Part shown: in pieces, positions 20,103 through 39,154 of the stretch | How the letters are laid out: every line of letters begins with the position of its first letter | Position numbering within the stretch: position 1 is the stretch's first letter | Source of the DNA: an uncultured Actinomycetes bacterium | GTDB taxonomy: Bacteria > Actinomycetota > Thermoleophilia > RBG-16-64-13 | NCBI GenBank assembly: GCA_963706025.1 | Contig: CAVPLM010000016.1 | Location: 1 to 39,543 of the forward strand | Length of the DNA stretch: 39,543 nt | Direction of reading: 5' to 3' | The notes under the pieces: generated by a model | Database searches by the model: none | What the model saw: the letters and a program-made list of their open reading frames with translations, nothing else | Told to the model about the DNA's origin: nothing | Translations under genes and position numbers: made by a program

Positions 20103-21848
20103 CTATGCATCGATCCAGCCGTCCTCAGCCCAACCGCGCATGAGCCAATAACGACGTACGCGCGCTTCAAGTTCCTCCCGATCCAAAGCTGGGGCCCCGT
20201 CAATAGGGTCCCTAAAAAAGCGGTCGGCAACCGTGTCATCCGCGGGACTGAGACCGAAAGCGAAGTTGAGCCGTCGTATTCGGGTGGCAACATCTGTGCA
20301 GAGACTCTGTAGCTCTTGCTTGCTGACCGGGCTACCGTGGAGCTGGCCGACGACGGAAGCGATAGTGTCCCAGCTCATGAAATCGCGATAGAACCGGCAC
20401 ATGGTCAACGAGTCGAGCAGAATCATACGGTCCTCGAAGTCGATGTAGGTTCGGACATACGCCTCGTCGTCCATCCCGTCCAGGACTCCGCCCAGTTCCG
20501 GTTTGTAGAAGGTGGCGCGAAGGTGGCAGGCGCCGCGTACACTCACCGCGTAGCTCAAAGCCATGCCCTTGAGTCTGCGCGGGTCATAGCCGGCTGGGTC
20601 CAAACCTTTGGTCGTGACCGACCACTCGCTCATCCCGAAATACCGGGCGGCATGATCCATCCCTTCTGCAAGAACATCACCGAGAGGTGTGGAGCGATGG
20701 GCGATAGCGTCGAGAAGTACGCCTATCACCGCGGCGTCACCCCAGGCCGGACCATCATCTAGCAGGCCCAAATCCTTGCCCTTCATGGCCAGAGCGACCA
20801 GATTCCCGGTGCTCATCGTGTCAAGGCCTAGGTGATTGCAGCGTTCGTTGAGCTTAGCCACATCACGGGCATGGCGCACCATACATGATCCGCCAAAGAC
20901 GTAGAGCGTCTCGTACTCTGGCCCGTGCAACTCCCGGCCCGTTTCGGGCCCTTCGGTGAGGACAAGGCGCTTGCGACAGCGCATTGGGCACGGTGGACAG
21001 GTGTCGGTTTCGATCCTCGCCCAGTCCGGCCAGGTCTCAGCCTCCAGTTCGCGCCTGTGCTCAACGGTCCCCTTGCTGAAGAAACTGCCGGGGAAAGCAC
21101 CGGCCTCGTTCACTATGGCTACCATCATCGGCGTGCCGAAGCGGCGATAGTTGCCAGCCACCGGCGCCTCTGTCGCCAGTCTGGAGACCCCACGCCGCGT
21201 CGCTACGAAATCGTCTGAGGCGGCAAGCTTGAGCGGCCCGGAAGACGTCACCGTTATCGCCTTCAGCTTCTTGCTTCCCAGGACCGCTCCCATCCCTCCT
21301 CGGCCCAGGGTGTGAGCTTGTTCGTGCATCACGCTGGCAACCTTCACGAGGTTCTCCCCTGCCACGCCGATGGAGAGCACCGCAGACCGTTTGTCGAGTT
21401 GTGCCCACAGCCGGGCCTCGACATCGAATGTGTCGCGGCCCCAGAGGTCATCCGCGGGGAGGACGGTGGCGCCGTCTTTCGTGATGTGGACTCTCACCGG
21501 GCTGCCCGCGGCACCGGATATGACAACCGCATCCCATTCCGTCTCCCGGAGCGTGCGGGCGAATGTCCCGCCGCAGTAGCTCTCCAGCCAGATGCCGGTG
21601 AGAGGGCTCTTGGTGAACGCCCCGAAACGATCCGAGCCAGACATGCCGAAGGCAGCGATGGGGCTGGGGGTCAGTGCGACGATATTGCCGGGTTGGAGTG
21701 GCCCCACGTCGGGGTCGAGGTACTTCTCCAAGAGCCGCATGCCGAGCGCCTTTCCCCCGAGACCGAGCATCCCTGCCGTGTCGATGCGATCGACGCGAGA
21801 GCTGCGGGACGCGAGATCGACAACCAGCACGGTCCGCGTTTCGGTCAT
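20103..21848 (-). CDS. Aldehyde:ferredoxin oxidoreductase (W/Mo-pterin AOR family)
   Basis: KSPLTG, GRGGMGAVLGSKKLKAI, CPPCPMRC, GPEYET, LGLDTMSTG, RGACHL and DSLTMCRF motifs. Confidence 0.92.
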   Translation of the reverse strand: MTETRTVLVVDLASRSSRVDRIDTAGMLGLGGKALGMRLLEKYLDPDVGPLQPGNIVALTPSPIAAFGMSGSDRFGAFTKSPLTGIWLESYCGGTFARTLRETEWDAVVISGAAGSPVRVHITKDGATVLPADDLWGRDTFDVEARLWAQLDKRSAVLSIGVAGENLVKVASVMHEQAHTLGRGGMGAVLGSKKLKAITVTSSGPLKLAASDDFVATRRGVSRLATEAPVAGNYRRFGTPMMVAIVNEAGAFPGSFFSKGTVEHRRELEAETWPDWARIETDTCPPCPMRCRKRLVLTEGPETGRELHGPEYETLYVFGGSCMVRHARDVAKLNERCNHLGLDTMSTGNLVALAMKGKDLGLLDDGPAWGDAAVIGVLLDAIAHRSTPLGDVLAEGMDHAARYFGMSEWSVTTKGLDPAGYDPRRLKGMALSYAVSVRGACHLRATFYKPELGGVLDGMDDEAYVRTYIDFEDRMILLDSLTMCRFYRDFMSWDTIASVVGQLHGSPVSKQELQSLCTDVATRIRRLNFAFGLSPADDTVADRFFRDPIDGAPALDREELEARVRRYWLMRGWAEDGWIDA

Positions 21849-21902
21849 GCGTGCGTCCTTTCTAGAGGCCCCTTTTCCAGTCCATCCGACTTCTCCTGTG
21901 TG

Positions 21903-22419
21903 TCACGCGGTCACATATCCCTCATCGATGAGAATCTGCATCACCTTCTCGGCAGCCGTTCTCGTGACCACGGGGCAGTGCTCGGTGTGGCCGCCGGCCG
22001 CCACGAACGCGTCAAGCCCATCTTGGAAGTTCGTGTTGAACGAGCGGCCCATCAGTTTCTCCTGAACACCGCGACAGTCGATACTCCAGAAGGTCTCCTT
22101 GAAATGATTCGTCAGACGCTGTCCGAGCTCGAACGAGCGGAACATCTTCTCTTTGTCGGCCCACGAGTCAAGGTCTCGGCCGGAATATAGAACTAAGAAC
22201 CATCACACCACCCGATACGGCTCCGCAAACGTTCCCGGTGTTCGCGCAACCTCCGCAGAGACCAGTTGCGGACTTGAAAACCCCCTCATTGACCACGTCA
22301 TCGCCCATGACTTCCCTGAACGCCCCAAGGACCGCTTGAGCGCATCCCGAGTACTGCTTCTCGTTGTCATAGGCCAGTTTGCCTACTCTCTCGATCATTG
22401 CCTTCTCCGAATCCTTCAT
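21903..22419 (-). CDS. C-GCAxxG-C-C family putative redox protein; frameshift near 22175
   Basis: GCAQAVL...GLCGG...VCGAVSGG in the first ORF, and IDCRGVQ...EHCP in the second ORF. Confidence 0.8.
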
Positions 22420-22453: not shown

Positions 22454-22765
22454 TCAGCTTCCGAAGACCGTGTCTCCGCTCTTGTTGTCGATCACAGGCA
22501 GTCCATCGAAACGGATCGCGCCAACAGGGACTTCTCCGTTGACTGCCTCCGTGACCATGCCCAGACCGATATTGCCAAAGCCGGCACACAGTTCGAGCAT
22601 TACGCAACCCGCTGCAACGAGATCCTTCGCAACACTCATGGCGGAGCTATAGTCAGGGACCGCGACCACTTCGACCTCTACTCCGTCGGGTGATGGTTGT
22701 CTCATGCGGTGAACTGCCGGGTCGGCTCCCTTCGCTAAATAGATGTAGGCAAATCTGACTGCCAT
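22454..22765 (-). CDS. Small conserved protein (DUF6506-like)
   Basis: FAYIY...VVAV...AKDLVAAGCVMLELCAGFG...VPVGAIRF pattern, with an AAGGAGG RBS before ATG 22765. Confidence 0.65.
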   Translation of the reverse strand: MAVRFAYIYLAKGADPAVHRMRQPSPDGVEVEVVAVPDYSSAMSVAKDLVAAGCVMLELCAGFGNIGLGMVTEAVNGEVPVGAIRFDGLPVIDNKSGDTVFGS

Positions 22766-22992: not shown

Positions 22993-24017
22993 TCACGGAA
23001 CAAGCAAGATCTTCGCGCCTTCTTTGCCAACTGCCATCTCGAACGCCTCTTCCCATCTGCGGAGGGGAAGCACCGCAGAAACGAGAGTCTCGAGCGAAAG
23101 CGTTCCTCGTTCCATCAGCCTGAGGGCCCGATCCCACGAACTCGAGTTCGATCTGCAGCATCCGATCAACCGAATATCCTTGAGTACGGCCTGGTCCCAG
23201 TCGAACCCCACCGGTCTTCCGAAAAGGCCGAGTTGAACGAAGCTGCCCCGTCTTTCGAGAAGGTCGAGGCCGATCTGGACTGCTGGTGACGCACCGGAAC
23301 ACTCGATCACGAAGTCGACCTTGCCGCAGCCCAACAGATCGCCATGCTCTTCCGTGGTGTCGCCGTCCAGTTCGATGATCCGATCGGCACCCAGTTCGCG
23401 GCCGAGATCGAGCCGTCTTCTGTCGCTGCTGAGACCGGCCAATATGACCAGCGCGCCTTGGAGCTTTGCAAGCCGTGTACAAATGAGGCCGATGGGGCCA
23501 GGGCCAGTTATCAATACGCGATCGGCCGCCTTGATGCACACTGCTTCTCTTGGATGGCCTTGACGCAGCAGGCCACGGGTTCGGCGAGGGCCCCTACCTC
23601 GAAACTGACTCCGGGTGGCAGATGCCTGACAACGTGGGCAGGCAGAACCAAGTAAGGGGCGAACGCGCCATCCAGACCGCTGCCGAAAGACAGGCGTTCT
23701 TCGCACAGCGCAGGTTCGCCATTGAGGCAGTGTGGACAACGCCCGCACGTGTGGGCGAACGGGAGTGCGGTGACATGATCGCCGACGCGAAACTCGTCCA
23801 CCCCCGCACCCGCCTCGACGATTTCTCCTGCCATTTCATGACCAAGAACCACCGGCGGGCTGTACGGGTACTCGTCACGCATGATGTGAATGTCCGTCCC
23901 ACAGACTCCTGCTGCCTTGACAGCGATCTTCACGGAGCCTGGGATCACCTGAGGCTCTGGTATCTCTCGTAGCTCCAGTTTGCCCGGACCGCTGGCGTAT
24001 TTGACAAGACCCAGCAT
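22993..24017 (-). CDS. Zinc-dependent alcohol/polyol dehydrogenase (MDR family); frameshift near 23545
   Basis: GVCGTD, LGHE, CGRCPHCLNGEPALC, EPVAC and GPGPIG motifs. Confidence 0.88.
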
Positions 24018-24058: not shown

Positions 24059-25162
24059 CTACGGAATGGCCACGCCGCTTTCGGCATCAAATAGGTGAGC
24101 TTGGCCAAGATCGAAGCCCACGTAGACTATTTCGCCTATATCGGGCCTGAGAGCGGCGTCCGCCCTGATCTTGACGGTCTGCTCTCCGATCTTCACCGTC
24201 ACGTGCGTCTCACGTCCAACGATCTCCGCGAGGTAGACCTCGCCTGAGATCGGGGCGTCTGGATGCGGGCTACTGGCGAATCGGGTATCTGCGGGACGCA
24301 CTCCCAGGAGAACGTTGGGCGATGGAGCGGACTTCGCTCGCCTCAGTAGGCCACCCTCGAGGGGCAGTTGTACCCCGTCAAGGGCAAAGTAGGTGTTGCC
24401 GTCTGCGGCCGTCAGCGAGCCTTCCATAATGCTCATGGGAGGATCACCCAGAAAGCCGGCCACAAACCGGTTGGCGGGCCTATCGTAGACGTCCTCCGGT
24501 GTTCCGATCTGCTGGACCACACCGTGATTCAGGACCGCGATCAAATCAGCCATCGAGAGAGCTTCAGCTTGGTCCGGTGTTGCGTAGATCGCAGTCGTCC
24601 CGAAGTCCTTCTGCATGCGCTTCAGCTCAGCGCGCATCAGATAGCGCAGCTTGGCATCCAGGTGAGCAATGGGCTCGTCCAGAAGGAACACCTGCGGCTG
24701 CCTCACGAGGCTGCGGGCAAGCGCGACTCTCTGTTTCTGTCCACCACTCAATTCGTTTGGTCGCCGCTCGAGGAGTTCATCGATCTGCAGCATGCCCGCT
24801 ATGTGTTCGACTCGCTCTTTTGTCTGGGCGCGGCTGTACTGCTTCTTCCTTCCTGGAGATCGAAGTGGAAAGGCCACGTTGTCGAACACCGAAAGGTGCG
24901 GGTAAAGCGCGTAGTTCTCAAAAGCCAATGCGACGTCGCGAAATCGCGGTTCGAGCTGGCTAACCGGGCTGGCGCCGATATGGATTTCGCCATCGTCAAT
25001 CTCTTCCAGGCCAGCGATAGAACGCAGTATCGACGTCTTCCCTGCTCCTGAGGGACCGAGAATGAACAGGAAACACTGGTCCGGGCAAGTGATCGTCACG
25101 CCGTCGAGGGCCTTGACCCGCCCGTAGGACTTCGTAACATTCTGGAGCTCTACGCTCGCCAT
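24059..25162 (-). CDS. Sugar/polyol ABC ATP-binding protein (MalK-like) with non-canonical H-loop
   Basis: GPSGAGKT, LSGGQKQRVALAR and LLDEP motifs. YATPDQ replaces YVTHDQ. C-terminal TOBE-like region. Confidence 0.92.
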   Translation of the reverse strand: MASVELQNVTKSYGRVKALDGVTITCPDQCFLFILGPSGAGKTSILRSIAGLEEIDDGEIHIGASPVSQLEPRFRDVALAFENYALYPHLSVFDNVAFPLRSPGRKKQYSRAQTKERVEHIAGMLQIDELLERRPNELSGGQKQRVALARSLVRQPQVFLLDEPIAHLDAKLRYLMRAELKRMQKDFGTTAIYATPDQAEALSMADLIAVLNHGVVQQIGTPEDVYDRPANRFVAGFLGDPPMSIMEGSLTAADGNTYFALDGVQLPLEGGLLRRAKSAPSPNVLLGVRPADTRFASSPHPDAPISGEVYLAEIVGRETHVTVKIGEQTVKIRADAALRPDIGEIVYVGFDLGQAHLFDAESGVAIP

Positions 25163-25192: not shown

Positions 25193-26293
25193 TCAGGCCA
25201 GAAGATTAGTTCCGTTGCTTTCGTCAAAGACGTGGACTCGAGACATATCTACTTCGAGGGCCACCTGTTCATCCTGTCCCCCGAGGCGTCGCGGATCCGC
25301 TGCCGCAAGGACCGGTTGCCCACCTATTTCCACTTCCACCTCGGCGCGGTCTCCGAGAGGCTCCCAAGCTATCGCGCGACCGGAGATCGTGCCGGCCTCT
25401 CCGTAAGGACCGGTGCACACGTTCAGGTCAATGGACCGGACACCAAGCACCACATTGCGACACGACGCTCCGCATACCTTCGTTGTCATCTCGCCATCAA
25501 GCAGCAGCGAGAACCCCTCACCCACAAGCCTAGCCTGACCGTTTTCTGTGGATAGCTCGCACCGCAACATGTTCATGGGGGGCGAGCCGATGAAGCCGGC
25601 CACGAACATGTTCGCCGGATGATCGAATAGCTCGAAGGGCTTGCCGACCTGCTGGAGCACGCCCAGGTTCATGACGGCGATCCTGTCGGCGATAGCCAGG
25701 GCCTCGAGCTGATCGTGTGTAACGTAGATGGTGGTGGCTTTCGTGGTGATGTGAAGACGCCTGAGCTCGCCTCGCAAGTCGATCCTCAGTTGGGCGTCCA
25801 GGTGCGAGATAGGTTCATCCATCAGAAACACGGCAGGTTCGCGGACGATGGCTCGCCCGATGCCCACTCTCTGCTTCTGGCCTCCACTCAAACCACGAAC
25901 TCGTTTGGGGAGAAGGTCGACGATAGCAAGCACCTTGGCTGCATGCATGACCCTCTCTTCGATCATCGCCTTTGGCATGCCGCGGGCTACGAGAGGTGTG
26001 GCCATGTTCTGCCGGACGGTCATGTGGGGATAGAGAGCATAGTTCTCAAAAATCATGGCGATGTTGCGGTCTCTCGGGGGTACTTCATTGATCAACTGGT
26101 CGCCGATGTAGATCTCGCCCGAGGTAACGGACTCGAGGCCGGCCACCATGCGCAGCGTGGTCGTCTTGCCGCATCCAGACGGCCCTATCAGGCAAAGGAG
26201 TTCACCGTCCTCGATATCGAGATCGAGGCTCTTTACCGCCTCGACAGACGTGCCGTAGGTCTTATAGAGACCCTTGATACTGATGTTGCTCAT
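25193..26293 (-). CDS. Sugar/polyol ABC ATP-binding protein (MalK-like)
   Basis: GPSGCGKTT, LSGGQKQRVGIGR, LMDEP and YVTHDQ motifs, with a GGAGG RBS before ATG 26293. Confidence 0.93.
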   Translation of the reverse strand: MSNISIKGLYKTYGTSVEAVKSLDLDIEDGELLCLIGPSGCGKTTTLRMVAGLESVTSGEIYIGDQLINEVPPRDRNIAMIFENYALYPHMTVRQNMATPLVARGMPKAMIEERVMHAAKVLAIVDLLPKRVRGLSGGQKQRVGIGRAIVREPAVFLMDEPISHLDAQLRIDLRGELRRLHITTKATTIYVTHDQLEALAIADRIAVMNLGVLQQVGKPFELFDHPANMFVAGFIGSPPMNMLRCELSTENGQARLVGEGFSLLLDGEMTTKVCGASCRNVVLGVRSIDLNVCTGPYGEAGTISGRAIAWEPLGDRAEVEVEIGGQPVLAAADPRRLGGQDEQVALEVDMSRVHVFDESNGTNLLA

Positions 26294-26312
26294 CGTTTGT
26301 CTTCCGCCTCCC

Positions 26313-27240
26313 TCACTTGACAGCACCGAAGGTGAGACCTCTTACCAGGTACTTCTGCAGTATGAACGTGAATATGAGGATCGGGAGGACAGCCACGAAG
26401 GCAACAGCCATAAAAGTGCCCCAGTCGATCCCCATAGAGGTTGAGAATCCGGTAATACTCACGGGGATGGTCTTCGCCTGGGTTCGGGTAAGGATCAGCG
26501 CGAAAAGGAATTCATTCCAGGAGAATATGGCCGAGAATACCGCGACGGCGGCGAGGCCGGGTTTCACCAGGGGCAAAGCCACTCGCAGAAAGACCTGCAG
26601 GCGACTGTAACCATCCACGAGCGCAGATTCCTCGAGTTCGCGCGGGATCTCGAGGAAGAAACCCCTGAGAAGCCAAACCGAGAAGGACAAGGTTCATAGC
26701 GACGTAGAGACAATAAGCGCGATATGGGTGTCCAGCAGCCCAAGCCCCGACATCAGTACGAACATCGGGACGATGAAGGCTATGGGCGGAGCCATCCTGG
26801 TTGACAGTATCCAGAAGGATAGATTACTACTCCCACGGAACTTGTACCGCGCGAGACCATAGCCGGCCGTGGCGCCGAACACCACCGATACGATCGTGCT
26901 CCCCACGACCACGATGATACTATTGACCAAGAACGGCAACTGGCTTGTACCCGCGTTCAAGGAACGCTTTTTATAGTTATCCAAGGTCGGCTCGAAAAGC
27001 CAGACCGGCGGGCTGGCAAAGATGTCGACCTGGGTCTTCAGAGAGGTCAGAAGAGATCACCACCAGTGGAAAGAGGCAGAAGCACAGGAATAGCACGGCC
27101 ACTGCATAGAGCGCGAGTCTTCCAGCCAGTGCCCCTGCGGCGGGGGCCTTGGCGACCGCCACTCGGCTGGAACCGCCCTCGATACGTCCGAGGCCATTGA
27201 TCACTGTAGGTTCAGGATCGAATCCGGTGTCCTTGTTCAT
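26313..27240 (-). CDS. Carbohydrate ABC permease (MalG-like), frameshifted twice
   Basis: NSIIV..AGYGLARY, ELEESALVDG (EAA loop) and FSWNEF segments lie across three frames. Confidence 0.85.
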
Positions 27241-27265: not shown

Positions 27266-28171
27266 TCATGATGTGGTCGCCTCGCGTTTCTGTAGCCAGC
27301 GAACGAAGATCTGGCTGATCAGAAGAATGAGCACCAGCATCAGAATCGCCATCGCGGCGGCATACCCTATGTCAAAGAACTGGAAGGCGTGCCGGTAGAT
27401 GTAGTAGGACATGGTCTCGGTCGCCCCGGCGGGACCCCCCGAAGTCATCTGATAGACGATGTCGAAGACTTTGAACGCATCCATGACCCGCAGCAGTGTC
27501 ACTATGAGGAGCACGGGGGCGAGCAGGGGTAACGTGACCTTCCGGAACGTCTGGAACCGAGTCAGTCCGTCGATCTGAGCCGCCTCATAGACATACTCGG
27601 GCAGGCTGTGCAGGCCGGCGAGTACTACCAGCATGATGAAAGGCGTCCACTGCCAGAAATCGGCGATCACGATCGCCAGCATGGCTAGAGGGCCGTTCGT
27701 CAACCAAGGCACGGAGGTCCCCAGAGCCCAGTTGACGACTCCGTAGCGCTGGTTGAACATGTAGAAGAAGATCAGCCCGGTGACGATGGGCATGACCATG
27801 ACGGGGATGACTGCGAACTTGCGTATGGTGGGCATTCCGCGGAGTCTCTGGTTCAAGACGAACGCCAGCGCGAACCCCACCAAGAACTGGAGCCCCACGG
27901 CGAAGACCACGAAGATGATCGTCCGCCATGTGCTGTTGATGAACCCTGGATCGGTGAAGGCGTGCGCGTAGTTCGAGAAGCCGGCCCAGCCCTGGAAGCG
28001 CGGAGTTCGAGCCATGTTGTAGTTCTGGAAGCTCAGAATCAGTGCGTACACGAAGGGAAACATGAAGAGCACGCCCAAGAGCAGCGTCGGCGGGGCAACA
28101 AGGAGCAGGGCTGCGTTGCGCCTGGCGACACGGTCACTGCCTGGCTTGCGAGTGGATCTCGAGAATCGCAA
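27266..28171 (-). CDS. Carbohydrate ABC permease (MalF-like)
   Basis: GFSNY, WQWTPF, YEAAQIDG and FKVFDIV...TSGGP motifs. Confidence 0.92.
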   Translation of the reverse strand: MRFSRSTRKPGSDRVARRNAALLLVAPPTLLLGVLFMFPFVYALILSFQNYNMARTPRFQGWAGFSNYAHAFTDPGFINSTWRTIIFVVFAVGLQFLVGFALAFVLNQRLRGMPTIRKFAVIPVMVMPIVTGLIFFYMFNQRYGVVNWALGTSVPWLTNGPLAMLAIVIADFWQWTPFIMLVVLAGLHSLPEYVYEAAQIDGLTRFQTFRKVTLPLLAPVLLIVTLLRVMDAFKVFDIVYQMTSGGPAGATETMSYYIYRHAFQFFDIGYAAAMAILMLVLILLISQIFVRWLQKREATTS

Positions 28172-29770: not shown

Positions 29771-29875
29771 TGAACTTGCCCCCTTATTAACGAACCAGAT
29801 TGACCCAGCCTCTGCTTGCCCCAGTCAGCGTCTCCTTCGTATGGCCTCCTTTCTACCATAAGACCGGTAGATCAT

Positions 29876-29906
29876 ATGTATACCGCATACCTAATACCAA
29901 ATGCAA
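29876..29906 (-). promoter_or_regulatory. Promoter/operator of the ABC-ADH operon
   Basis: atgtataccgcatacc-N9-atgcaa has the same layout as 32241-32271. It reads TTGCAT-N18-TATACA on the minus strand. Confidence 0.65.
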
Positions 29907-30014: not shown

Positions 30015-30284
30015 TCATCCGCCAGCCGCAGGCATGAGAACGGTAATCACATCCCCCGACGTCAGCACCCAATCATTCTTTCGTGGTTGCCCGTTGACAA
30101 AGAAACTGACGCCGTAGGTTCCGTTCGGCTGCCGAATCGCACGCTCCACATTCCGGCCTCCTTGCTGGACCAGCAACTCCACTGCCCCGGCGAGAGTGGA
30201 CCCCTCAGGAACGTTCAGCAACACCTCCCTTGCACCCCAAGCCAACCGCAGTACGCCGTGGAGCTCAATCGTGAGGTTCATCAT
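30015..30284 (-). CDS. MoaD/ThiS-family sulfur carrier
   Basis: Ubiquitin-like size, FVNG, GDVITVLMPAAGG C-terminal diglycine. It overlaps the AOR stop. Confidence 0.88.
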   Translation of the reverse strand: MMNLTIELHGVLRLAWGAREVLLNVPEGSTLAGAVELLVQQGGRNVERAIRQPNGTYGVSFFVNGQPRKNDWVLTSGDVITVLMPAAGG

Positions 30285-32209
30285 CGAAGGAGAAGCTCAC
30301 GCGCCGCATCGTTGACCCGTTCGATCTCGGGAACCAGCCATCCGAGTTCCAGCTCCCACAGCTTCTCGGGAGTGGGGACGCCTGTGTCCCGGTCCCAACC
30401 GCACAGGCGGTAGTAGAGCCCCTTCATCGCCTGGAAGGTCTCTCTATCAAGGTGCTTACCAGCGAGGACGCCCGCTGGGAGTGGCTCGAAGAACCGGTCG
30501 GGCAGGGTCTCGTCGTCAGCGCTGATGCCCTCCCGGGCGTTGAAGCATCGCGCCATGACTGTCCGCTTTTCCCCCAGCTTCATCAGTTCATAGAGACTGA
30601 CCTCTCTCCCGGTCGCTGCGCTCAGAATGCTGGTGATGTCCGCGAAGGTAAAACTCCTGACCGGGGCCGCTACAAACACGCACATACAGAGTGCATCAAG
30701 GAAACTGAAGTGCTGCGAGAGCACGTAATGCATCCGCACTTTCTGCTCGTCCAGAACCACGGAGTCCAGACGCTCGTAGATACCCAGCGGAAGAGCCTGT
30801 TGCAGGAAGATCTCGGGCGCGTCGAAGTCGAAATCACAGTCATGCTCGACCCTGATGTGATCGGCCCCGATATCGGAGGTGGAATAAGAGAGGTACAGCA
30901 TTCCCTTGCCGCGCGGGTCATGTAGTGGAGCTTCTTGCTTCTTGCTGACAATGGCGTATTGCTGCGTGTCATTGCCCACGATCCCAGCCGCACGATGCGC
31001 CCCTTCGGCAAGCACGTCGCCGAACCCCCGACGGAACGCGATGGCCTCGAGTGTTTCGAGCAACCCCGCCTCGCTGCCGAAGGTAAGGTCCAGCCCGCCG
31101 GTGTCGGCCGGGGAGAGGAGACCCCGCTGGCTGCACTCCATGGCCCAGGCTATGGTGCCACCCGCAGAGATGCTATCCAGACCATACTTGTTGCAGAGTT
31201 CGTGCCCTTTGGCGACGGCCTCAGCATTCCAGATATCGAGATTCGAACCCAGCGCTCCGATAGTCTCGTATTCCGGCCCGCCGTACGTCGGGTCTACATG
31301 GTAGGGTTCTCCCGTCTGCACGATGGGCTTGCAGCCGACCGCACAGTGCCAGCAGGTTCCGTGACCGGTCATGATCGTCTCTTTGAAGGTCTCGCCAGAG
31401 AGCCGATCAGCGTTTTCGTACCAACCGGCCTGAAAGTTCCTGATGGGCAGCATGCCCCTGACGTTGTTCGCGTTCACGTAATAGCCGGTGCCGATCGCCT
31501 TCAGATTCGAGTTGTCAGGATTTGTCCTGATGCGCTCCGCGAAGAGCTTGTTGCGGCGCCGTATCTCATCCTGGTCCGCGAGGGGAAGCCCGACAGTACC
31601 CCGCACCGCGATGGCCTTCAGGTTCTTCGAGCCGAACACGGCCCCCGCCCCGCTGCGTCCATTCACGTGATGTCTATCCGTGACCACACAGGCGAATCTG
31701 ACCAGGTTTTCGCCGGCAGGCCCGATGCAACAGATGCGGGCCTTGGGTTCCTGGACCTCTTGCCTTATCTGCGTCTCGGTGTCCCCTGTACTAAGACCCC
31801 ATAGGGAGCGGGCATCGCGGATATCGACCTTCCCGTCCTGTATGTAGACGTAGACGGGTTGGCCTGCGCGGCCCTCGATCACGATCCCGTCCCAGCCTGC
31901 GTGGCGGAGTTCAGGACCGAAGAAGCCGGCCGCCTGACTGTCGATCAGCGCGCCCGTGAGCGGAGATTTCGCTTGAATGCTGTAGCGATTGAAACCGGAT
32001 GCGGGGATTCCTGCGATGCCGGCGGAGATGCACAGAACGTTATCGGGACCGAGAGGGTCGATGCCTGGTGACGACTCTCTGAGGAGGTAGTAGATGCCTT
32101 GGCAAGCTCCGCCCCAGTAGCGTCGATAGAATGTCTCATCATGCGCGTCGACCCACGTCCGACCAGTTGTCAGGTCGATTCTTAGAGTCTTGCCGTGGAA
32201 GCCGTACAT
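30281..32209 (-). CDS. Aldehyde:ferredoxin oxidoreductase (W/Mo-pterin AOR family)
   Basis: MYGFHGKTLRIDL, KSPLTG, GRSGAGAVFGSKNLKAI, CWHCAVGC, GPEYET, YGLDSIS and DALCMC motifs, with a GGAGG RBS. Confidence 0.93.
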   Translation of the reverse strand: MYGFHGKTLRIDLTTGRTWVDAHDETFYRRYWGGACQGIYYLLRESSPGIDPLGPDNVLCISAGIAGIPASGFNRYSIQAKSPLTGALIDSQAAGFFGPELRHAGWDGIVIEGRAGQPVYVYIQDGKVDIRDARSLWGLSTGDTETQIRQEVQEPKARICCIGPAGENLVRFACVVTDRHHVNGRSGAGAVFGSKNLKAIAVRGTVGLPLADQDEIRRRNKLFAERIRTNPDNSNLKAIGTGYYVNANNVRGMLPIRNFQAGWYENADRLSGETFKETIMTGHGTCWHCAVGCKPIVQTGEPYHVDPTYGGPEYETIGALGSNLDIWNAEAVAKGHELCNKYGLDSISAGGTIAWAMECSQRGLLSPADTGGLDLTFGSEAGLLETLEAIAFRRGFGDVLAEGAHRAAGIVGNDTQQYAIVSKKQEAPLHDPRGKGMLYLSYSTSDIGADHIRVEHDCDFDFDAPEIFLQQALPLGIYERLDSVVLDEQKVRMHYVLSQHFSFLDALCMCVFVAAPVRSFTFADITSILSAATGREVSLYELMKLGEKRTVMARCFNAREGISADDETLPDRFFEPLPAGVLAGKHLDRETFQAMKGLYYRLCGWDRDTGVPTPEKLWELELGWLVPEIERVNDAARELLLR

Positions 32210-32240
32210 CCGTCCTCCCGAATCACGAATGTGATAGAGC

Positions 32241-32271
32241 ATGTATACCGCATACCCCATACATAATGCAA
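32241..32271 (-). promoter_or_regulatory. Promoter/operator in the AOR-gntR divergent region
   Basis: atgtataccgcatacc-ccatacata-atgcaa, whose first 16 bp are identical to 29876-29891. Confidence 0.65.
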
Positions 32272-32360
32272 GTGGCTTTTCTTCAGCGACTGACTGCGGT
32301 AGACTTCAGCAAGGGAACAAACGCCACAGACCGCGAGTGACCATTCCTGGGAGTGAGGCC

Positions 32361-33176
32361 TTGAACGAGAACCCTGTTACCGGCGACCTGATAGATCAGA
32401 AGACCCTTGCTGAAGCCGCACGCGAGAAGATAAGGGAAGCAATCCTGCAAGGGAGGTTCGAGCCAGGGAAGAAGCTAGACCAGGCGATGCTGGCCCGAGC
32501 ATATGGAATAAGCCGCATGCCCATTCGCGATGCCCTTCGCGCGCTTGAGCGCGACGGCTTCGTGGCTCTGGATTCCCGCCGGGGGGCTTCAGTGGTGGAT
32601 GTCGACCCGAAGGAAATGGCGCAGCTGTACGAAATCAGAGAGGTAGTCGAGATGCTGGCCGCGAAGCAAGCCGCACCTCGCATCACAGATGAAGATCTTG
32701 AAGGCCTGAGAGACCTCTCTAGGCGGATGGAGGAAGCCAATTCCGTCGGTGATACGGCGCGCTTTCTGCAGCTGGATCACGACTTCCACCTGGCTGCGTA
32801 CCGGGCCTGCGAGAACGTTCCATTGCTGAGAATCGTCGGTGATCTCATAAACTCTACTTGGATCTACCGCATCGCTGCGACGCGGCAAGCTCGCGATCGC
32901 GCGGCGTATCAGAGCGAGCATGGTGAGATCATCGACGCACTAGTGGCGAGAGACTGCCGGCTCGCATGTCGGCTGGTCAAACAGCACCTGCGGCAAACGG
33001 AGCGAATCATCGGCCATGGACACAAGGGTAGCCGTCCGAAAGATAACCATGAGGCCATCGCCGACCAGCCGAAACCCCGTAACATCCAGGAAGAGAGGTC
33101 GCACCACAGTGTCTCCCGAGCGAGCCAAAGTGCGGACTTGCACAGGATCGGACGCCGCGCTGGCTCGCCCGAATAA
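32361..33176 (+). CDS. GntR-family (FCD) transcriptional regulator
   Basis: IREAILQGRFEPGKKL...LARAYGISRMPIRDAL HTH and FCD motifs (D..FH, EH..I...L..RD). The start is uncertain (TTG 32361 or GTG 32337). Confidence 0.9.
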   Translation: MNENPVTGDLIDQKTLAEAAREKIREAILQGRFEPGKKLDQAMLARAYGISRMPIRDALRALERDGFVALDSRRGASVVDVDPKEMAQLYEIREVVEMLAAKQAAPRITDEDLEGLRDLSRRMEEANSVGDTARFLQLDHDFHLAAYRACENVPLLRIVGDLINSTWIYRIAATRQARDRAAYQSEHGEIIDALVARDCRLACRLVKQHLRQTERIIGHGHKGSRPKDNHEAIADQPKPRNIQEERSHHSVSRASQSADLHRIGRRAGSPE

Positions 33177-33902: not shown

Positions 33903-34099
33903 TTGACCGCCCACCGGCTCCGTGCTATAAACTGCGTGTACGGTATACGCCCGGGCGCGCGCCGACTTCAGTCAGGACAGCCGCCCCTAGCGGAGCACTC
34001 TCGCTCCAATAGTCCGGGCACAGCGATCTCTTGACAAGGGGAAAGATACGGTTATAGTTGTATACCGTGTACGGTATGTGTTGAAGTGTGCGGTATAGG
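33903..34099 (+). promoter_or_regulatory. Tandem sigma70-like promoters with operator motifs upstream of the dehydrogenase operon
   Basis: TTGACC-17-TATAAA (33903-33931) is followed by gtgtacggtatac. TTGACA-16-TATAGT (34031-34058) is followed by the palindrome ATACCGT-GT-ACGGTAT (34062-34077). A further gcggtata lies near 34090. Confidence 0.7.
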
Positions 34100-34231
34100 G
34101 CAGCCCGAGCACCACATCGAGGGGCGGCTCCTCGATTCGAGCCTTGGCGGTCTTGGGGACTCCCGGTTTCGCAGCACAAGCCGCGGGTGATTGATGTCGA
34201 CCAAGAAGATCTGATGAGGGAGGTTGCGGCA

Positions 34232-35239
34232 GTGGAGCTCACCAAGAAGCGTCTACTCGAGATGTACCGAACCATGGTCAGGATTCGGCGATTCGAGGAG
34301 AAGATCGTGGAGATGTACGCCGAAGGCACGATGCCCGGTCTCGCTCACCTCTACAACGGTGAGGAGGCGGTAGCCGTGGGGGCGTGCAGCGCTCTCAACC
34401 CCGACGACTACATCACCAGCACCCACAGGGGCCACGGGCATCTGATCGCCAAAGGCGGCAAGACGGACTTGATGATGGCCGAACTCTTTGGTCGTGAAGC
34501 CGGATACTGCAAAGGAAAAGGCGGATCGATGCACATCGCCGACCTCGATCTCGGTATTCTCGGCGCCATGGGCATCGTGGGGTCTGGCCTTCCCATTGCG
34601 GTGGGCGCTGGATACTCCGCGTACTTGCGCAAGTCAGGCCAGGTATGCGTCGCCTTCTTCGGAGATGCGGCCTCCAACATCGGAGCAGCGCACGAGTCTC
34701 TCAATCTTGCCGCCGTCTGGAAGCTCCCGGTGGTCTTCGTGTGCGAGAACAACGGATATGGCATTTCGGTGTCCCAGAAACGGCACCAAGCCATCACCGA
34801 CATCGTTGACAGGGCCCCTGGGTATGGCATGCCGGGGGTCATAGTCGACGGGAACGACGTGGTCGCGGTGCACCGGGCCGTATCTGAAGCAGTTGAGCGA
34901 GCAAGGGCCGGCGAGGGCCCCTCGTTGATCGAGTGCAAGACGTATCGAATGCGCGGTCACTTCGAAGGAGACCCGGGTCGCGGAATGCGCTACCGATCAA
35001 CGGAAGAGATCCAGCTTTGGGATTCGCCAGAGAAGGACGCCATCGCTCGTTTCGGCGCTGAGTTGGTGAAATCCAAGAAAGCGACGCAAAAGGAGCTGGA
35101 TGACATCCTCGCCGAAATCGCAGCAGAAATAGAAGCTGCTGTGGTCTTCGCGAAGGCGGCGCCGTTCCCCGACATGACTGAGGGTATGGAAGACGTCTAT
35201 AGCGCCGAGTATGCGCACTTGGCCCAGACCGGGCTCTAG
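34232..35239 (+). CDS. TPP-dependent acetoin/2-oxoacid dehydrogenase E1 alpha (AcoA/PdhA-like)
   Basis: HLYNGEEA, STHRGHGH, GKGGSMH, FGDAA..N and ENNGYG motifs. GGGAGGT RBS before GTG 34232. Confidence 0.92.
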   Translation: MELTKKRLLEMYRTMVRIRRFEEKIVEMYAEGTMPGLAHLYNGEEAVAVGACSALNPDDYITSTHRGHGHLIAKGGKTDLMMAELFGREAGYCKGKGGSMHIADLDLGILGAMGIVGSGLPIAVGAGYSAYLRKSGQVCVAFFGDAASNIGAAHESLNLAAVWKLPVVFVCENNGYGISVSQKRHQAITDIVDRAPGYGMPGVIVDGNDVVAVHRAVSEAVERARAGEGPSLIECKTYRMRGHFEGDPGRGMRYRSTEEIQLWDSPEKDAIARFGAELVKSKKATQKELDDILAEIAAEIEAAVVFAKAAPFPDMTEGMEDVYSAEYAHLAQTGL

Positions 35240-35281: not shown

Positions 35282-36259
35282 ATGAGAACCATTTCCTATA
35301 GCCAGGCGGTCCGAGAGGCCTTGCGGGAAGAGATGCTTCGGGACCCCAGCGTCATCATGTTCGGTGAGGACTGCGGACCCTACGGGGGGATCTACGGCGT
35401 AAGTGGGGACCTGCGCGAGCAGTTCGGCGAAGAACGAGTTCGCGACACGCCCATTTCGGAATCGGCGATCGTGGGCTGCGGCATAGGAGCAGCCATGACC
35501 GGAATGCGTCCAGTCCCGGAAATCATGCAGACGGACTTCTTCGGGGTCTGCCTGGACCAGATCGCCAACCAAGCGGGCCAGATCCGGTACATGTTCGGGG
35601 GCAAAGCCCGGCTGCCCCTGGTGATCCGGACCGCGGAAGGTGCCGGCCGCGGAGCAGCCGCCCACCATTCCCAGTGCCTGGAAGCCTGGATCCTGCATTC
35701 CCCCGGCCTCCTTCTGGTGATGCCCGCCACCCCCTATGATGCCAAGGGTCTCTTAAAGACCGCCATCCGGGGCGAGGACCCGGTGGTTTTCATCGAGCAC
35801 AAGATGCTCTACCGCACCACCGGACCGGTGCCGGACGAGGGGGAGGAGTACACCATCCCCTTCGGGGTGGCCGCGGTTCCCCGAGAGGGCACGGATGTCA
35901 CCGTGGTGGCCATATCGGCCATGGTGCCCAAGGCGCTCGCGGCGGCCGAGAAGTTGGCTGAGGAGGATGTGAGCGTTGAGGTTATTGACCCGCGCACAAT
36001 AAGACCCCTGGATCTTGACCGGATTTGCGAATCGGTTCGTAAGACCCATAGGGCGGTCATCGTTCATGAAGCTCGCAAGACGTGCGGCATAGGGGCGGAG
36101 ATCGCCTCGCGGATAACGGAGAACGTCTTTGACTACCTTGATGCCCCGGTGGCGCGCGTGTGCGGGTGGGACACTCCCGTTCCCTTCAGCCCGGTGCTCG
36201 AGAAGGCGTTCATCCCCGACGAGAACGACATCGTTAGTGCCGTCCGCGGACTCCTTTAG
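35282..36259 (+). CDS. Dehydrogenase E1 beta (AcoB/PdhB-like)
   Basis: FGEDCG..GG, RVRDTPISE, AAHHSQ, DAKGLL and EVIDPRT motifs. Confidence 0.93.
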   Translation: MRTISYSQAVREALREEMLRDPSVIMFGEDCGPYGGIYGVSGDLREQFGEERVRDTPISESAIVGCGIGAAMTGMRPVPEIMQTDFFGVCLDQIANQAGQIRYMFGGKARLPLVIRTAEGAGRGAAAHHSQCLEAWILHSPGLLLVMPATPYDAKGLLKTAIRGEDPVVFIEHKMLYRTTGPVPDEGEEYTIPFGVAAVPREGTDVTVVAISAMVPKALAAAEKLAEEDVSVEVIDPRTIRPLDLDRICESVRKTHRAVIVHEARKTCGIGAEIASRITENVFDYLDAPVARVCGWDTPVPFSPVLEKAFIPDENDIVSAVRGLL

Positions 36260-36268: not shown

Positions 36269-37661
36269 ATGGCGACCAGAGTGAATGTGCCCTATATGGG
36301 ACTCACCACCGAAGAAGTCACGGTGACTGAGTGGCTGAAGCAGGAGGGAGAGGCCGTCGCCAAGGGCGAGTCGATTGTGGAGGTGCTCACCGACAAGGTG
36401 AACAATGTGGTCGAAGCCCCCGAAGCCGGGGTGCTGCTCAAGATCGTGGCTCCCGCGGATACAGTCGTCCCTGTCGAGGGTGCCCTCTGCTGGATCGGCG
36501 AGGCTGGGGAGGAAGTGCCCGATAAGGAGGCAGCTGCGACCGCCGTGCCTGGCGAGGAACGGGCCGATGCCACCAAGCCCGCGGAAGCCGTGGCGACCGT
36601 GGCCGCCCAGTCGGTCGGGAGCGGCGAATACGTGAAGGCCTCTCCCGCGGCCAAGCGGGCGGCCCGCGAGCGGGGCGTCGATCTGGCTCTGGTCACCGGC
36701 ACCGGTCCCGGGGGCCGGGTGACCGAAGACGATGTGGCCACATACGGAGAAGAGCAGGCCCCTGCCGGCACGGTCCGGGCCACGCCCCTAGCCAAGAAGC
36801 TGGCCGCTGAGTCCGGAGTGGACCTGGCCGGCGTGTCAGGCACCGGGGTTAACGGCCGCATCCGCGGAGCCGATATCGTGGCCGCGGGGGCGCCGGCTGC
36901 CGGGCCGGCCCCTGCCGACGTGGGCTCCGCCACCCGAGCGGGTCTGCCCCTCGCCCCGGCAGAGATCGCCTCCGTGGTGCCCATGGCCGGCCTGCGTCGG
37001 ATCGTCGCCCAGAGGATGTTCCAGAGCGCCCGGACCATCCCCCGGGTCACGCACACCACCGAAGTGGACGTCACCGAAACGGTGCGGATGCGCGACTGCT
37101 TGCTGGCCCGGGCCGAGAGCCAGGGCGGGGTACGTCCCTCCTACACCGACATCGTGGTCAAGATCACGGCCCAAGCATTGCGCGAGCACCCCCTGATGAA
37201 CGCCCGAGTGGCCGAGGAAGAGATCCAGGTGCTGGACGCGGTCAACGTGGGGGTGGCGGTCGCGGTTGCCGACGGCCTGGTGGTCCCGGTGATCCACGAC
37301 GCCGACCTCAAGGGTGTGCAGGCTATAGCCGAGGAGTCGCGGGACAAGATCGAACGGGCCCGGGCCGGTACGCTGGTTGCCGACGATGTGACCGGTGGCA
37401 CCTTCACGGTCACCAACCTGGGCACCTACGAGATCGATGCCTTCACCCCCATCATCAACCTTCCCGAGGCGGGAATCCTAGGGATCGGCCGCATCGTCAA
37501 GAAACCGGTGGTTGTGGACGGCCAGATCGCGATCCGTTCGATGATGTACCTGAGTCTGACCTTCGACCACCGCGATCATCGACGGAGCCCCGGCCGCAGC
37601 CTTCTTGCGCACCATCAAGGGGTACCTAGAGAAGCCTTACGAGCTTCTTGCGGTGCGCTGA
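36269..37661 (+). CDS. Dihydrolipoamide acyltransferase E2 (one lipoyl domain, two E3-binding domains); frameshift near 37574
   Basis: TDKV lipoyl lysine, ASPAAKR..GTGPGGR and ATPLAKK..GTGVNGR subunit-binding domains, TFTVTNLG. The shifted frame restores DHRIIDGAPAAAFL...* at 37661. Confidence 0.9.
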
Positions 37662-37721
37662 CGCGATCAAACACATTCAACTGCATCCGGAAGTCGGGCC
37701 CGACCCCGAGAGGAGCCTGCT

Positions 37722-39154
37722 TTGGTAACGACTGATTTGGCCATCATCGGCGCCGGCCCCGGCGGATATGTGGCCGCCCTGCGCGCCGCCCAGTTGGGGA
37801 TGAAGGTGACCGTAATAGAGAGTACCCATCTGGGCGGCATCTGCCTGAACCGAGGGTGTATTCCCACCAAGGCTATGCTGCATACGGCCGCCGTCGCTCA
37901 CGAAGTTCGGCAGGCGGGCTACCTACGGGGTGATCGTCAAGGGGGAGCCGCGCATCGACTACGCGGCTGCTCTTAAGCGCCGCGAGGACGTGGTCGCGGG
38001 GCTCCGCAGCGGGGTGCGCACCCTGCTCAGGCAGGGCAAGGTGGAGGTCCTGGCCGGGCGCGCTTCGTTTGTTGGGCCGCGCACGCTGGTTGTCGAGCCG
38101 GTCGAGGCCGATATCGGCGCCGGCAAAGGCGTGGTGCTTGGCGCCCAAGAGACGGTGGAGGCCGCCCACATTATGGTGGCGACCGGTTCGAAGCCGGCGG
38201 CCCTGCCCATTCCGGGCGTCGATCATCCCCGGGTGATCGACTCGGACGGAGCCCTTGCCCTCACGAAGGTCCCGGCCAGCCTGCTGGTGGCGGGCGCTGG
38301 GGCCGTGGGCTGCGAGTGGAGCCTGATCTTCGCCCGTCTGGGTGCCAAGGTCACCCTGGTCGAGATGCTGCCGGAGGTGCTGCCCCGGGAAGACGCCGAC
38401 ATGGGCAAGGTGCTGGCCAAAGCCTTAAAAGGCGAGGGGGTCACCGTCCACACCGGCACTTCCGTCACGGCGGTCAGGGAGAAGGGCGGTGAGCTCGAGG
38501 TTGAGCTTTCAGGCCAGTCTACGAGCATCGTCGCTGCCGACTACGTTCTCGTCGCGGCCGGCCGGGCGCCTCTCATCGACGGTCTAGCCCTGGAAGCTGC
38601 CGGGGTCGCGACCGACCCCAAAGGCTGGATTCTCGACCGACCCCTATCAGAAGACCAACGCCCCGTCGGTTCTTGCCGTCGGGGACGTCACCGGTCGGGC
38701 GCTTCTTGCCCACGTAGCCTCGAGGCAGGGGATCGTGGCGGTGGAGAAGCTGGCCGGGCTTTCTCCGGAGCCGGTCCGCGATGACCGCATCCCTTCCGTC
38801 ACCTATACCGACCCGGAAGTCGCGAGCGTGGGACTCACCGAGACGCAGGCCCGGGAGACGGGCCTCCCAGTGGTCGTCGGCACGTTCCCCTTCTCCGCTT
38901 CCGGTCGGGCTCAGGCCCAGGGCGCGGACACCGGACTGGTGAAGGTGGTGGCCGAATCCGGGTTTGGCCGGGTTCTCGGGGTGCACATGGTCGGCCCTCA
39001 CGTGGGCGAGTTGTTAGCCGAAGCTGTCCTGGCGCTGGAACTCGAGACCACTCTGGACGAGCTGTCGTCGGTCATCCGCGCGCATCCCACACTCTCGGAG
39101 GCTCTGGGTGAAGCTTCCCTGGCGGCGGCAGGCCGGGCGCTGCACTCGACCTAG
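37722..39154 (+). CDS. lpdA: Dihydrolipoamide dehydrogenase E3, frameshifted twice
   Basis: [41 protein letters not shown] and HPTLSE motifs across three frames. Confidence 0.88.

Follow-up and report, generated by a model that had tools for sequence, protein, structure and literature searches.

The locus analysed here raises the question of why genes for an ATP-binding cassette (ABC) importer, a zinc-dependent dehydrogenase, a thiamine pyrophosphate (TPP)- and lipoamide-dependent enzyme complex and two aldehyde:ferredoxin oxidoreductases (AORs) lie together in one island in the genome of an uncultured sediment actinobacterium, and whether their products act in one pathway. The window, meaning the whole stretch of 39,543 nucleotides that was analysed, is an entire contig (C16) of a 30-contig, 3,661,609-base genome bin, whose other contigs are cited as C3, C5, C11, C15 and C17. 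The island fills most of the right half of the window and is a 19.7-kb (19,684-nt) strain-variable accessory insertion. Judging from a predicted operator repeated in their promoters, the importer-dehydrogenase operon, the second AOR gene (AOR2) with its moaD-like neighbour, and the genes of the complex (E1alpha, E1beta, E2 and E3) probably form one co-regulated unit, and the island suggests an undescribed anaerobic route for polyol or diol breakdown.

A first-pass annotation of positions 20103-39154 had listed the gene classes of this island, and every one is confirmed by Pfam and NCBIfam. It had also remarked on the absence of a sugar kinase, isomerase or aldolase; none of the open reading frames (ORFs) scanned in 19.8-39.5 kb matched those families. 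Features that it overlooked are a GntR/FCD regulator, a weak remnant of an IS3-like insertion sequence (IS), seven frameshifts, direct repeats and an 88% identical copy of the E1-E3 module on C3. In order of transcription, the minus strand carries the genes for the solute-binding protein (SBP), permease 1, permease 2, two ATPases, a zinc-dependent medium-chain dehydrogenase/reductase (Zn-MDR alcohol dehydrogenase, ADH), a DUF6506 protein, a C_GCAxxG_C_C protein and AOR1; AOR2 and the overlapping moaD-like gene sit upstream of the SBP gene, also on the minus strand. On the plus strand, the regulator gene (gntR) diverges from AOR2, and E1alpha, E1beta, E2 and E3 start about 1 kb further on. The features of the putative regulon are as follows.

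22993..24017, minus strand: Zn-MDR alcohol/polyol dehydrogenase in two frames, with ADH_N on 23511-24017 and ADH_zinc_N on 22993-23748
24059..25162, minus strand: ABC ATPase 2, MalK/UgpC-like, with ABC_tran, OB_MalK and TOBE_2; UgpC subfamily model 375.4 bits, below the 432 cut-off
25193..26326, minus strand: ABC ATPase 1, MalK/UgpC-like, with ABC_tran, OB_MalK and TOBE; UgpC subfamily model 408.9 bits, below the 432 cut-off
26313..27240, minus strand: permease 2 in three frames, with BPD_transp_1 on 26313-26690
27266..28171, minus strand: permease 1, BPD_transp_1 73.4 bits
28256..29770, minus strand: CUT1 solute-binding lipoprotein (SBP), 504 amino acids (aa), with SBP_bac_1, TAT_signal and a Thr/Ala-rich linker
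29871..29906, minus strand: promoter-like site with embedded operator-like motif upstream of the SBP operon, TTGGTA-18-TATGAT at 29900-29871
30015..30284, minus strand: ThiS/MoaD-family protein, 89 aa, PF02597 24.4 bits against a 22.5 cut-off, C-terminus AAGG
30281..32260, minus strand: AOR2, AFOR_N 234.9 bits, AFOR_C 386.1 bits, likely true start M18 at 32209
32241..32271, no strand assigned: operator-like motif in the divergent AOR2/gntR region, second copy of a 31-nt repeat
32241..33176, plus strand: GntR regulator with FCD domain, GntR 59.8 bits, FCD 97.1 bits; start codon uncertain, helix-turn-helix from residue 57
33936..34097, plus strand: E1alpha promoter region, with the best sigma-70-like match in the island and three operator-like motifs
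34088..35239, plus strand: TPP-dependent E1alpha, E1_dh 305.9 bits, likely start ATG 34214
35282..36259, plus strand: E1beta, Transket_pyr and Transketolase_C; NF006667 subfamily model 368.4 bits, above the 321 cut-off
36269..37661, plus strand: E2 with a lipoyl domain, two E3-binding domains and a catalytic domain (Biotin_lipoyl, E3_binding, 2-oxoacid_dh); one frame break
37722..39154, plus strand: E3 dihydrolipoyl dehydrogenase in three frames, Pyr_redox_2 and Pyr_redox_dim on three ORFs

A control motif shared by three promoter regions

An unbiased repeat scan of the window finds a 31-nt sequence twice, at 87% identity: once at 29876-29906, upstream of the SBP operon, and once at 32241-32271, in the divergent region between AOR2 and gntR. 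A 16-mer taken from this repeat has two matches where 0.05 are expected. The 12-mer pattern TATACCGYRYAC, which takes the form TATACCGCATAC at 29879 and at 32244, has five matches in the window against 0.04 expected; they start at 29879, 32244, 33936 (minus strand), 34061 (plus strand) and 34086 (minus strand). These five are all of its matches in the 3,661,609 bases of the genome, and all five lie in the promoters of units presumed to be regulated by the GntR/FCD protein. Among 2.03 Mb of fetched loci, the pattern occurs once in an unrelated locus, the remaining matches being in copies of the window itself.

In the promoter-like site of the SBP operon, the operator-like motif lies between both hexamers. 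The E1alpha promoter, TTGACA-16-TATAGT at 34031-34058 (11 of 12 positions), is directly followed by the dyad ATACCG-TGTA-CGGTAT. Three of the 108 genomic occurrences of the 7-nt motif core, counted on both strands, fall within 165 nt before E1alpha, and this clustering of the exact core is independent of pattern fitting. The 12-mer is not present at the 88% identical E1-E3 copy on C3, and the island copy therefore appears to be under island-specific control. Upstream of the SBP gene in relatives the operator motif was not found, and a different conserved promoter box occurs there. The regulator itself matches the PdhR model weakly (50.2 bits against 330).

As direct repeats, the two 31-nt copies enclose the AOR2-moaD segment and nothing else, and in the metagenome contig L177 gntR adjoins the SBP gene directly. 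Because of these two arrangements, we suggest that an older gntR-SBP junction may have received AOR2-moaD as an insertion, in the course of which the control region was duplicated.

Importer, oxidoreductases and the E1-E3 complex

The importer has the composition of a CUT1 system, namely an SBP_bac_1 protein, two BPD_transp_1 permeases and MalK-like ATPases with C-terminal OB/TOBE domains, encoded here by two ATPase genes. CUT1 systems normally have one such gene, and two are unusual. UgpC/MalK models are the top matches of both ATPases, below their cut-offs. The best match of the SBP in the PDB is 5IAI (E=2.6e-49 over 391 residues, about one third identical; the next best has E=1.8e-27), and 4RYA, a "sorbitol" SBP, is matched as well (E=1.6e-19). 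A section of PMC8468352 describes 5IAI as containing bound ribitol. Polyol-type import, as proposed in the first-pass annotation, is consistent with a ribitol complex being the best solved relative of the SBP, and the ligand itself is predicted by similarity. A reading of the system as a tungstate/molybdate transporter was considered and rejected, given a 504-aa SBP_bac_1 protein near sugar/polyol binders, two permeases and MalK/UgpC-like ATPases.

Relatives of the SBP are scarce: the nearest among 5.8 billion proteins is 48% identical, the best non-self match in 301 genomes of the phylum is 32% identical, and the SBP as a single query found no relative among metagenome contigs. A profile scan of metagenome contigs gave 80 SBP-anchored loci (L175-L254), many of them short, in 33-36 of which the permeases and both ATPases lie alongside the SBP gene. 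Orthologs of permease 2 in metagenome loci are 55-82% identical. A GntR/FCD gene is directly upstream of the SBP gene in L175, L176, L177, L178 and L237. A collinear series is found in an unrelated metagenome contig, L177 (52% GC), which carries on one strand a GntR/FCD gene, SBP, two permeases, two ATPases, ADH and, up to the contig end, E1alpha; identities to the island are 48% for the SBP, 48% and 43% for the N- and C-terminal halves of the intact 343-aa ADH, and 53% for E1alpha. Used as a query, the C-terminal half of the island ADH matches L177 (43%) and L004 (31%) and no others, and the N-terminal half resembles threonine, polyol and butanediol dehydrogenases, below every equivalog cut-off. 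The first-pass annotation had staked its proposal on these genes occurring together elsewhere; the series GntR-ABC-ADH-E1alpha does so in L177, but no comparable conservation was seen for an AOR with the importer. The tandem pair of different MalK-like ATPase genes is kept in 36 of the 80 loci.

The "two divergent AORs with MoaD" of the first-pass annotation hold, as AOR1 and AOR2 are about 34% identical and a MoaD-family gene is confirmed. Both proteins contain AFOR_N and AFOR_C, and the C-x2-C-x3-C cluster motif, a mark of the AOR family, reads CWHCAVGC in AOR2 and CPPCPMRC in AOR1. AOR2 resembles the homodimeric AOR of P. furiosus; its PDB matches 9MQX_D (404.3 bits) and 1AOR (401.5 bits) are aligned from residue 18, and M18 is likely to be its true start. 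For AOR1, which has a 68% identical paralog on C5, the best PDB match is 1AOR (298.9 bits). The MoaD-like protein scores above the PF02597 cut-off and ends in GG, its score for moaD_arch is 24.9, below the 49.5 cut-off, and the start of its gene overlaps the AOR2 stop. MoaD-like genes in aor operons are proposed, in a part of PMC6365974, to encode tungsten-cofactor maturation factors. The likeness to the tungsten AORs of P. furiosus (1AOR) and A. aromaticum (aorABCDE) thus comprises both AFOR domains, the 1AOR score of AOR2 and the MoaD-like gene. Unlike the A. aromaticum type, the island is without AorA/AorC-type electron-transfer subunits, and the AOR equivalog model NF007354 (cut-off 868 bits) gives 204.4 bits for AOR2 and 121.3 bits for AOR1. 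No match to AOR2 in species-representative genomes exceeds 47% identity, and the best are mostly metagenome-assembled genomes (MAGs) of Chloroflexota, which are no guide to host taxonomy.

AOR genes are numerous in this lineage. A tblastn search finds 16 loci in this genome, and AFOR_C is matched in 22 of 24 genomes of the same family, with up to 26 per genome, and in 1 of 16 genomes from other families of the class. At C3:420-427 kb, an ADH match (423183-424217) lies between two AORs (420237-422021 and 425504-427312), which echoes the pairing of AOR and MDR dehydrogenase in the island.

E1alpha and E1beta of the heterotetrameric TPP-dependent type are encoded together with a lipoyl-bearing E2 and with E3, the last two out of frame here. 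The genome has five E1alpha-beta loci. The copy on C3 aligns to E1alpha-E3 at 88.2% DNA identity over 3,415 nt and then at 77.4% over 1,429 nt; homology starts at 34253, just within E1alpha, and the upstream region is not shared. Island E1alpha scores 361.5 bits on TIGR03182 (cut-off 393.85) and 257.6 bits on TIGR03181 (cut-off 411.35). Four acetoin E1alpha references backed by gene context score 320.5-371 bits on TIGR03182; they come from Burkholderia (acoR-acoX-acoABC), Klebsiella (with a LuxR-type acoK), Enterococcus (with a sigma-54 regulator and butanediol dehydrogenase) and C. difficile. No E1alpha copy in this genome scores above the pyruvate dehydrogenase (PDH) cut-off, which is exceeded in 15 of 121 genomes of the phylum. 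In two maximum-likelihood trees, 12 PDH-y sequences of the phylum that were certified by hidden Markov models (HMMs) form a clade (support 89, then 99) with island E1alpha outside. It pairs with the C3 copy and, weakly (support 85), with the E1-E2-E3 cluster lineage of related genomes. Its position is on the AcoA-like side of the tree, and the clade of Enterococcus, Burkholderia and Klebsiella sequences (support 98) does not include it; the backbone is poorly resolved (support 79-93).

Two of the five E1 loci in this genome are within 10 kb of an AOR and a third is at 10.4 kb, with a permutation P(>=2) of 0.06; among relatives, an AOR is near 4 of 20 E1 loci, which come from 3 genomes and are not independent of each other. 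This proximity is suggestive. Beside the E1-E3 copy, at C3:556-592 kb (L093, L094), is a divergent ABC system that consists of a TOBE_2 ATPase, a 459-aa protein without a Pfam match and two permeases. Further on are an old-yellow-enzyme (OYE)/Pyr_redox_2 flavoprotein, an AOR sharing 44% identity with AOR2, and genes of URO-D-like and pterin-binding type. In 8 of 80 AOR2-anchored loci, an AOR has homologs of the same ABC system next to it, and an AOR followed by a URO-D-like gene is seen again in L237.

Sugar-alcohol contexts surround the closest annotated plasmid homologs of E1alpha (51-55% identity) in each of the four cases that were examined (H2, H3, H5 and H8 among the top eight matches, where H1 and H6 are unannotated under the match and H4 and H7 were left out). 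In Shinella (L111/L171), the E1 gene is accompanied by SorC-type regulators, a Zn-ADH that is 40% identical to the N-terminal half of the island ADH, a glycerol-3-phosphate-dehydrogenase-like gene and a sugar ABC system. In Rhizobium (L172) and Terrarubrum (L173) it occurs with a glucitol-type phosphotransferase system, and in Rubrobacter (L174) it lies beside genes for a Zn dehydrogenase, a sugar ABC system, GlpD, glycerol kinase and a class II aldolase. The three alphaproteobacterial E1alpha sequences form a clade of their own (support 99). These contexts may reflect an undescribed role of this type of E1 in polyol catabolism.

A proposed pathway and its rivals

We propose that a single GntR/FCD-controlled regulon comprises three transcription units. 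The first would encode a polyol-type CUT1 ABC importer (SBP, two permeases and two MalK-like ATPases) followed by the Zn-MDR dehydrogenase, the second a homodimer-type tungsten/molybdenum AOR2 and a MoaD-like cofactor-maturation protein, and the third a TPP/lipoamide E1alpha-beta/E2/E3 complex of the AcoABCL/PDH type. The dehydrogenase would convert an imported polyol or vicinal diol to an alpha-hydroxyketone, which E1-E3 might cleave oxidatively to an acyl-CoA and an aldehyde in the manner of acetoin dehydrogenase, and AOR2 could then oxidize the aldehyde to an acid while reducing ferredoxin. This ketol scheme is the most economical that uses all the co-regulated parts; within it we infer the substrate, the cleavage of a ketol by E1, the role of AOR2 and any role of AOR1, the C_GCAxxG_C_C protein and the DUF6506 protein. 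The full chemistry, from diol to ketol to acyl-CoA plus aldehyde to acid, is a serious candidate that in our estimation falls somewhat short of probable.

In a more specific version, the TPP/lipoamide complex would have been recruited to cleave a ketose or deoxy-ketose derived from an imported sugar alcohol, yielding acetyl- or glycolyl-CoA and a polyhydroxy-aldehyde to be oxidized by the tungsten AOR. We consider this possible but on the whole unlikely. If it is correct, the island would support a non-phosphorylative, kinase-free polyol fermentation that gains ATP from acyl-CoA and low-potential electrons from the aldehyde, and the AcoAB-like E1 genes on plasmids would mark a wider, undescribed class of enzymes. 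The ketol scheme in its general form would extend oxidative-thiolytic acyloin cleavage from acetoin to larger imported polyhydroxy compounds, connect it with the tungsten/molybdenum AOR chemistry of an anaerobic, uncultured lineage of actinobacteria, and help to explain the function of some of the expanded AOR and AcoAB-like paralogs in sediments. Because the island is strain-variable, such a pathway would stand outside core metabolism, as an accessory trait that defines a niche.

Among known systems, the island is likely best filed as a variant of the butanediol/acetoin-type pathway, with a polyol-type importer and an AOR in the regulon as additions; the systems compared are those of Pelobacter carbinolicus, Klebsiella (acoABCD), Burkholderia (acoRXABC) and an Enterococcus plasmid. 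It shares with AcoABCL systems a Zn-MDR dehydrogenase, a heterotetramer-type TPP E1alpha-beta, a lipoyl E2 and E3, and its E1alpha is in the TIGR03182 range of AcoA and 46-50% identical to reference AcoA. A further likeness is to acetoin-grown P. carbinolicus, for which a portion of PMC4275255 describes an acetoin:2,6-dichlorophenolindophenol (DCPIP) oxidoreductase and a benzyl-viologen-linked, non-acetylating oxidation of acetaldehyde. In the searchable literature, with subscription journals and supplements outside its scope, this was the only relevant paper found on a combination of AOR, acetoin dehydrogenase and ABC genes, and no paper was found on an association of AcoAB-like E1 with polyol genes. 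The island differs from the AcoABCL systems in its dedicated CUT1 importer with an SBP that resembles a ribitol binder, in a GntR/FCD regulator where the reference loci have a sigma-54 AcoR or LuxR-type AcoK, in the AOR gene within its regulon, in an E1alpha outside the clade of the three reference AcoA sequences, and in an ADH whose N-terminal half is 33% identical to the Enterococcus butanediol dehydrogenase. Polyol ABC systems such as those of 5IAI and 4RYA likewise combine an SBP_bac_1 protein, two permeases and MalK/UgpC-like ATPases with an adjacent MDR dehydrogenase. Compared with these, the island has two distinct ATPase genes, no kinase in the cluster, and co-regulation with a TPP complex and an AOR; its SBP is about one third identical to 5IAI, a likeness in ligand that is read from sequence.

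Several observations, here and in the next two paragraphs, weigh against the ketol scheme. The interpretation in the first-pass annotation gains from the shared motif and from one independent co-occurrence, but AOR1, the C_GCAxxG_C_C protein and the DUF6506 protein, which it had included, are linked to the unit by adjacency only, with no operator motif upstream and a terminator-like hairpin after ADH. The degenerate pattern TATACCGYRYAC was fitted after its sites had been seen, so its nominal statistics overstate the case, and the unbiased scan gave two 31-nt copies only, the other three sites having been reached through near-matches. Carboxylates are the usual effectors of FCD-type regulators, and a sugar acid would fit no less well than a polyol. 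The absent kinase is weak evidence, since one could be encoded elsewhere. Downstream genes were read in four close SBP loci, and the enzyme encoded there varies: ADH-E1alpha follows in L177 alone, an Ldh_2 enzyme in L178 and, in L183, a protein whose fucose-isomerase domain is weak, while L175 showed none. The E1alpha of L177 is not sister to that of the island in the tree. An AOR is found in 1 of the 80 SBP-anchored loci (L237), where it belongs to another unit. Among 80 AOR2-anchored loci from species-representative genomes, SBP, MoaD and DUF6506 genes each occur in none, E1alpha in one, E1beta in two and ADH in two; these counts say little, because AOR2 has no close ortholog (best 47%). Also to be counted here are the seven breaks of reading frame over about 17 kb of coding DNA (C_GCAxxG_C_C 1, ADH 1, permease 2 2, E2 1, E3 2).

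The same regulon could instead serve a 2-oxoacid dehydrogenase complex, most likely one for pyruvate, with the imported compound converted to the 2-oxoacid by enzymes encoded here and elsewhere, the GntR/FCD protein acting like PdhR, and AOR2 handling a side aldehyde or acid reduction. The subunit set is identical to that of heterotetrameric PDH complexes, E. coli PdhR is a precedent for GntR/FCD control of a PDH operon, human PDH E1alpha is the best solved relative of island E1alpha (226.5 bits against 166 and 149 for branched-chain enzymes), E1beta exceeds the cut-off of the "PDH E1 beta" subfamily model NF006667, and the best E2 models are those of PDH E2. The E1-E3 lineage is moreover found with E2/E3 in many genomes of the family, in other contexts. 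The first-pass annotation had taken a grouping of E1 with canonical PDHs as the result that would undo its proposal. Neither the trees nor the HMM scores give that grouping, as island E1alpha scores too low for either PDH equivalog model and is placed outside the certified clade by both trees, but an approximately unbiased (AU) test leaves it in play: forcing E1alpha into the PDH clade costs 11.2 log-likelihood units, which is not rejected (p=0.166). Against a 2-oxoacid complex are also its co-regulation with an importer, an ADH and an AOR, the lack of an island enzyme that would make a 2-oxoacid from a polyol, and the C3 copy, beside which a second, separately regulated one would be superfluous for housekeeping. 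Such a complex yields no aldehyde, so the co-regulated AOR2 would be unexplained, and we regard this alternative as rather unlikely.

A different possibility is that there is no common pathway, and that a polyol uptake-dehydrogenase operon feeding a kinase encoded elsewhere was joined by recombination or IS activity to a spare E1-E3 module and two AORs, the shared motif being duplicated promoter DNA and not a sign of common function. An island that is strain-variable, has direct repeats at its ends and carries an IS3-like remnant between gntR and E1alpha is compatible with such an origin, as are the 88% identity of E1-E3 to the C3 module with homology from 34253 only, the abundance of AORs in this genome and its family, the marginal P value for E1-AOR proximity, and the 31-nt copies that flank AOR2-moaD as direct repeats. 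However, what precedes E1alpha is not a copied block but a set of three diverged half-sites, partly in inverted orientation, at a strong promoter match, and L177, from another organism, has ADH and then E1alpha behind an orthologous importer. A mosaic of this kind therefore seems to us improbable, and the ketol scheme is retained as the working interpretation.

Reading frames, island borders and flanking genes

The frame breaks are near 22170-22200 in the C_GCAxxG_C_C gene, at 23543 in ADH, at 26692 and 26962 in permease 2, at 37573 in E2 (one extra base inside the DHR-IIDG motif), and near 37918 and 38635 in E3. We compared the island with contigs assembled from four public sediment or freshwater-sediment runs of two studies, which cover it at 88-98% identity. 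At five of the seven sites, relative contigs are without the extra letters: two letters are missing at 23543 in contigs of all four runs, one each at 26692 and 26962 in contigs of runs X1 and X2, the extra base at 37573-37574 in three contigs of run X3 and in the C3 copy, and one letter at 38635 in contigs of three runs. The extra base at 37918 is missing in the C3 copy. All 12 indels listed against the run contigs are extra letters on the window side. The run contigs also bridge ADH-ABC-SBP, SBP-MoaD-AOR2 (29530-32159) and the stretch from E3 to the right repeat (38538-39511, runs X2 and X3); between gntR and E1alpha (about 32.9-34.3 kb), these contigs give little cover, and no bridging piece was seen.

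If the seven frameshifts were real, the island would be decaying and the genes affected would be pseudogenes in this strain. The number of breaks in about 17 kb of coding sequence favours this view when set against rpoB, rpoC, ileS and secA on C3, each of which is a single open frame. Yet the letters missing from the contigs of other samples are exactly the extra ones, and the C3 copy has four single-base indels of its own in E1beta/E2 while being 84-96% identical at the protein level. The bin mixes strains (contamination 7.31%; C15, C16 and C17 overlap), and errors of a mixed-strain consensus fit better. Because they cluster by region in a strain-mixed bin, we read the frame breaks as consensus or assembly errors, which they very probably are, and consider true decay very unlikely. 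Such regional grouping is seen at C5:7.0-9.4 kb, where an aminoacyl-tRNA-synthetase-like gene is in four frames, at C5:16.0-17.1 kb, where an E1alpha gene is in two, and at C3:566-568.6 kb, where E1beta is in three frames and E2 in two. E3 of the C3 copy is a single 484-aa ORF.

The remaining features of the island and its borders are listed here.

19761..19821, no strand assigned: left direct repeat, comprising the 3' end of the L,D-transpeptidase/SLH (S-layer homology) gene and bases downstream
20103..21848, minus strand: AOR1, AOR family, 581 aa, AFOR_N 192.6 bits, AFOR_C 292.4 bits
21903..22419, minus strand: C_GCAxxG_C_C protein in two frames; PF09719 positions 3-54 on ORF 22168-22419 and 54-118 on ORF 21903-22202
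22454..22759, minus strand: DUF6506 protein, PF20116 87.6 bits, sole copy in the genome
33385..33924, minus strand: probable, weakly matched C-terminal remnant of an IS3-family transposase; NF033516 E=0.0081, 15.4 bits against a 160 cut-off, profile positions 284-344 of 369
39445..39504, no strand assigned: right direct repeat, beyond which the sequence continues like the empty-site contig C17

The N-terminal half of the C_GCAxxG_C_C protein scores 39.3 bits on TIGR01909. The IS3-like remnant contains an internal stop and had no Pfam match. The direct repeats at 19761-19811 and 39445-39495 are 51 nt long, 96% identical and spaced by 19,684, and reach about 60 nt if one gap is allowed. Positions 1-19824 of the window align to C15 at 91-98% identity and to C17 at 94%. 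C15 stops 5 nt inside the island. In C17, the sequence of window positions 39445-39543 follows directly on the end of the L,D-transpeptidase gene, and C17 is therefore an empty site. Several haplotypes of the region 1-19826 are carried in the bin (C15 at 91-98% identity, C17 at 94% and C11 at 80%). With a completeness of 92.29%, the bin is a strain mixture, and claims at the level of contigs are to be read accordingly. RpoB residues 300-800 are 80-91% identical to those of the closest named relatives, which are MAGs labelled Thermoleophilia or Actinobacteria.

The flank at 1-19800 encodes an ABC ATPase, a CitMHS_2 transporter, a regulator of the PucR type and a glutamate-synthase-like protein of 996 aa that contains ferredoxin domains, together with a protein that, as read from the sequence, is SLH/L,D-transpeptidase-like. 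Five of the ten ORFs scanned in this flank, several long ones among them, are without a Pfam match.

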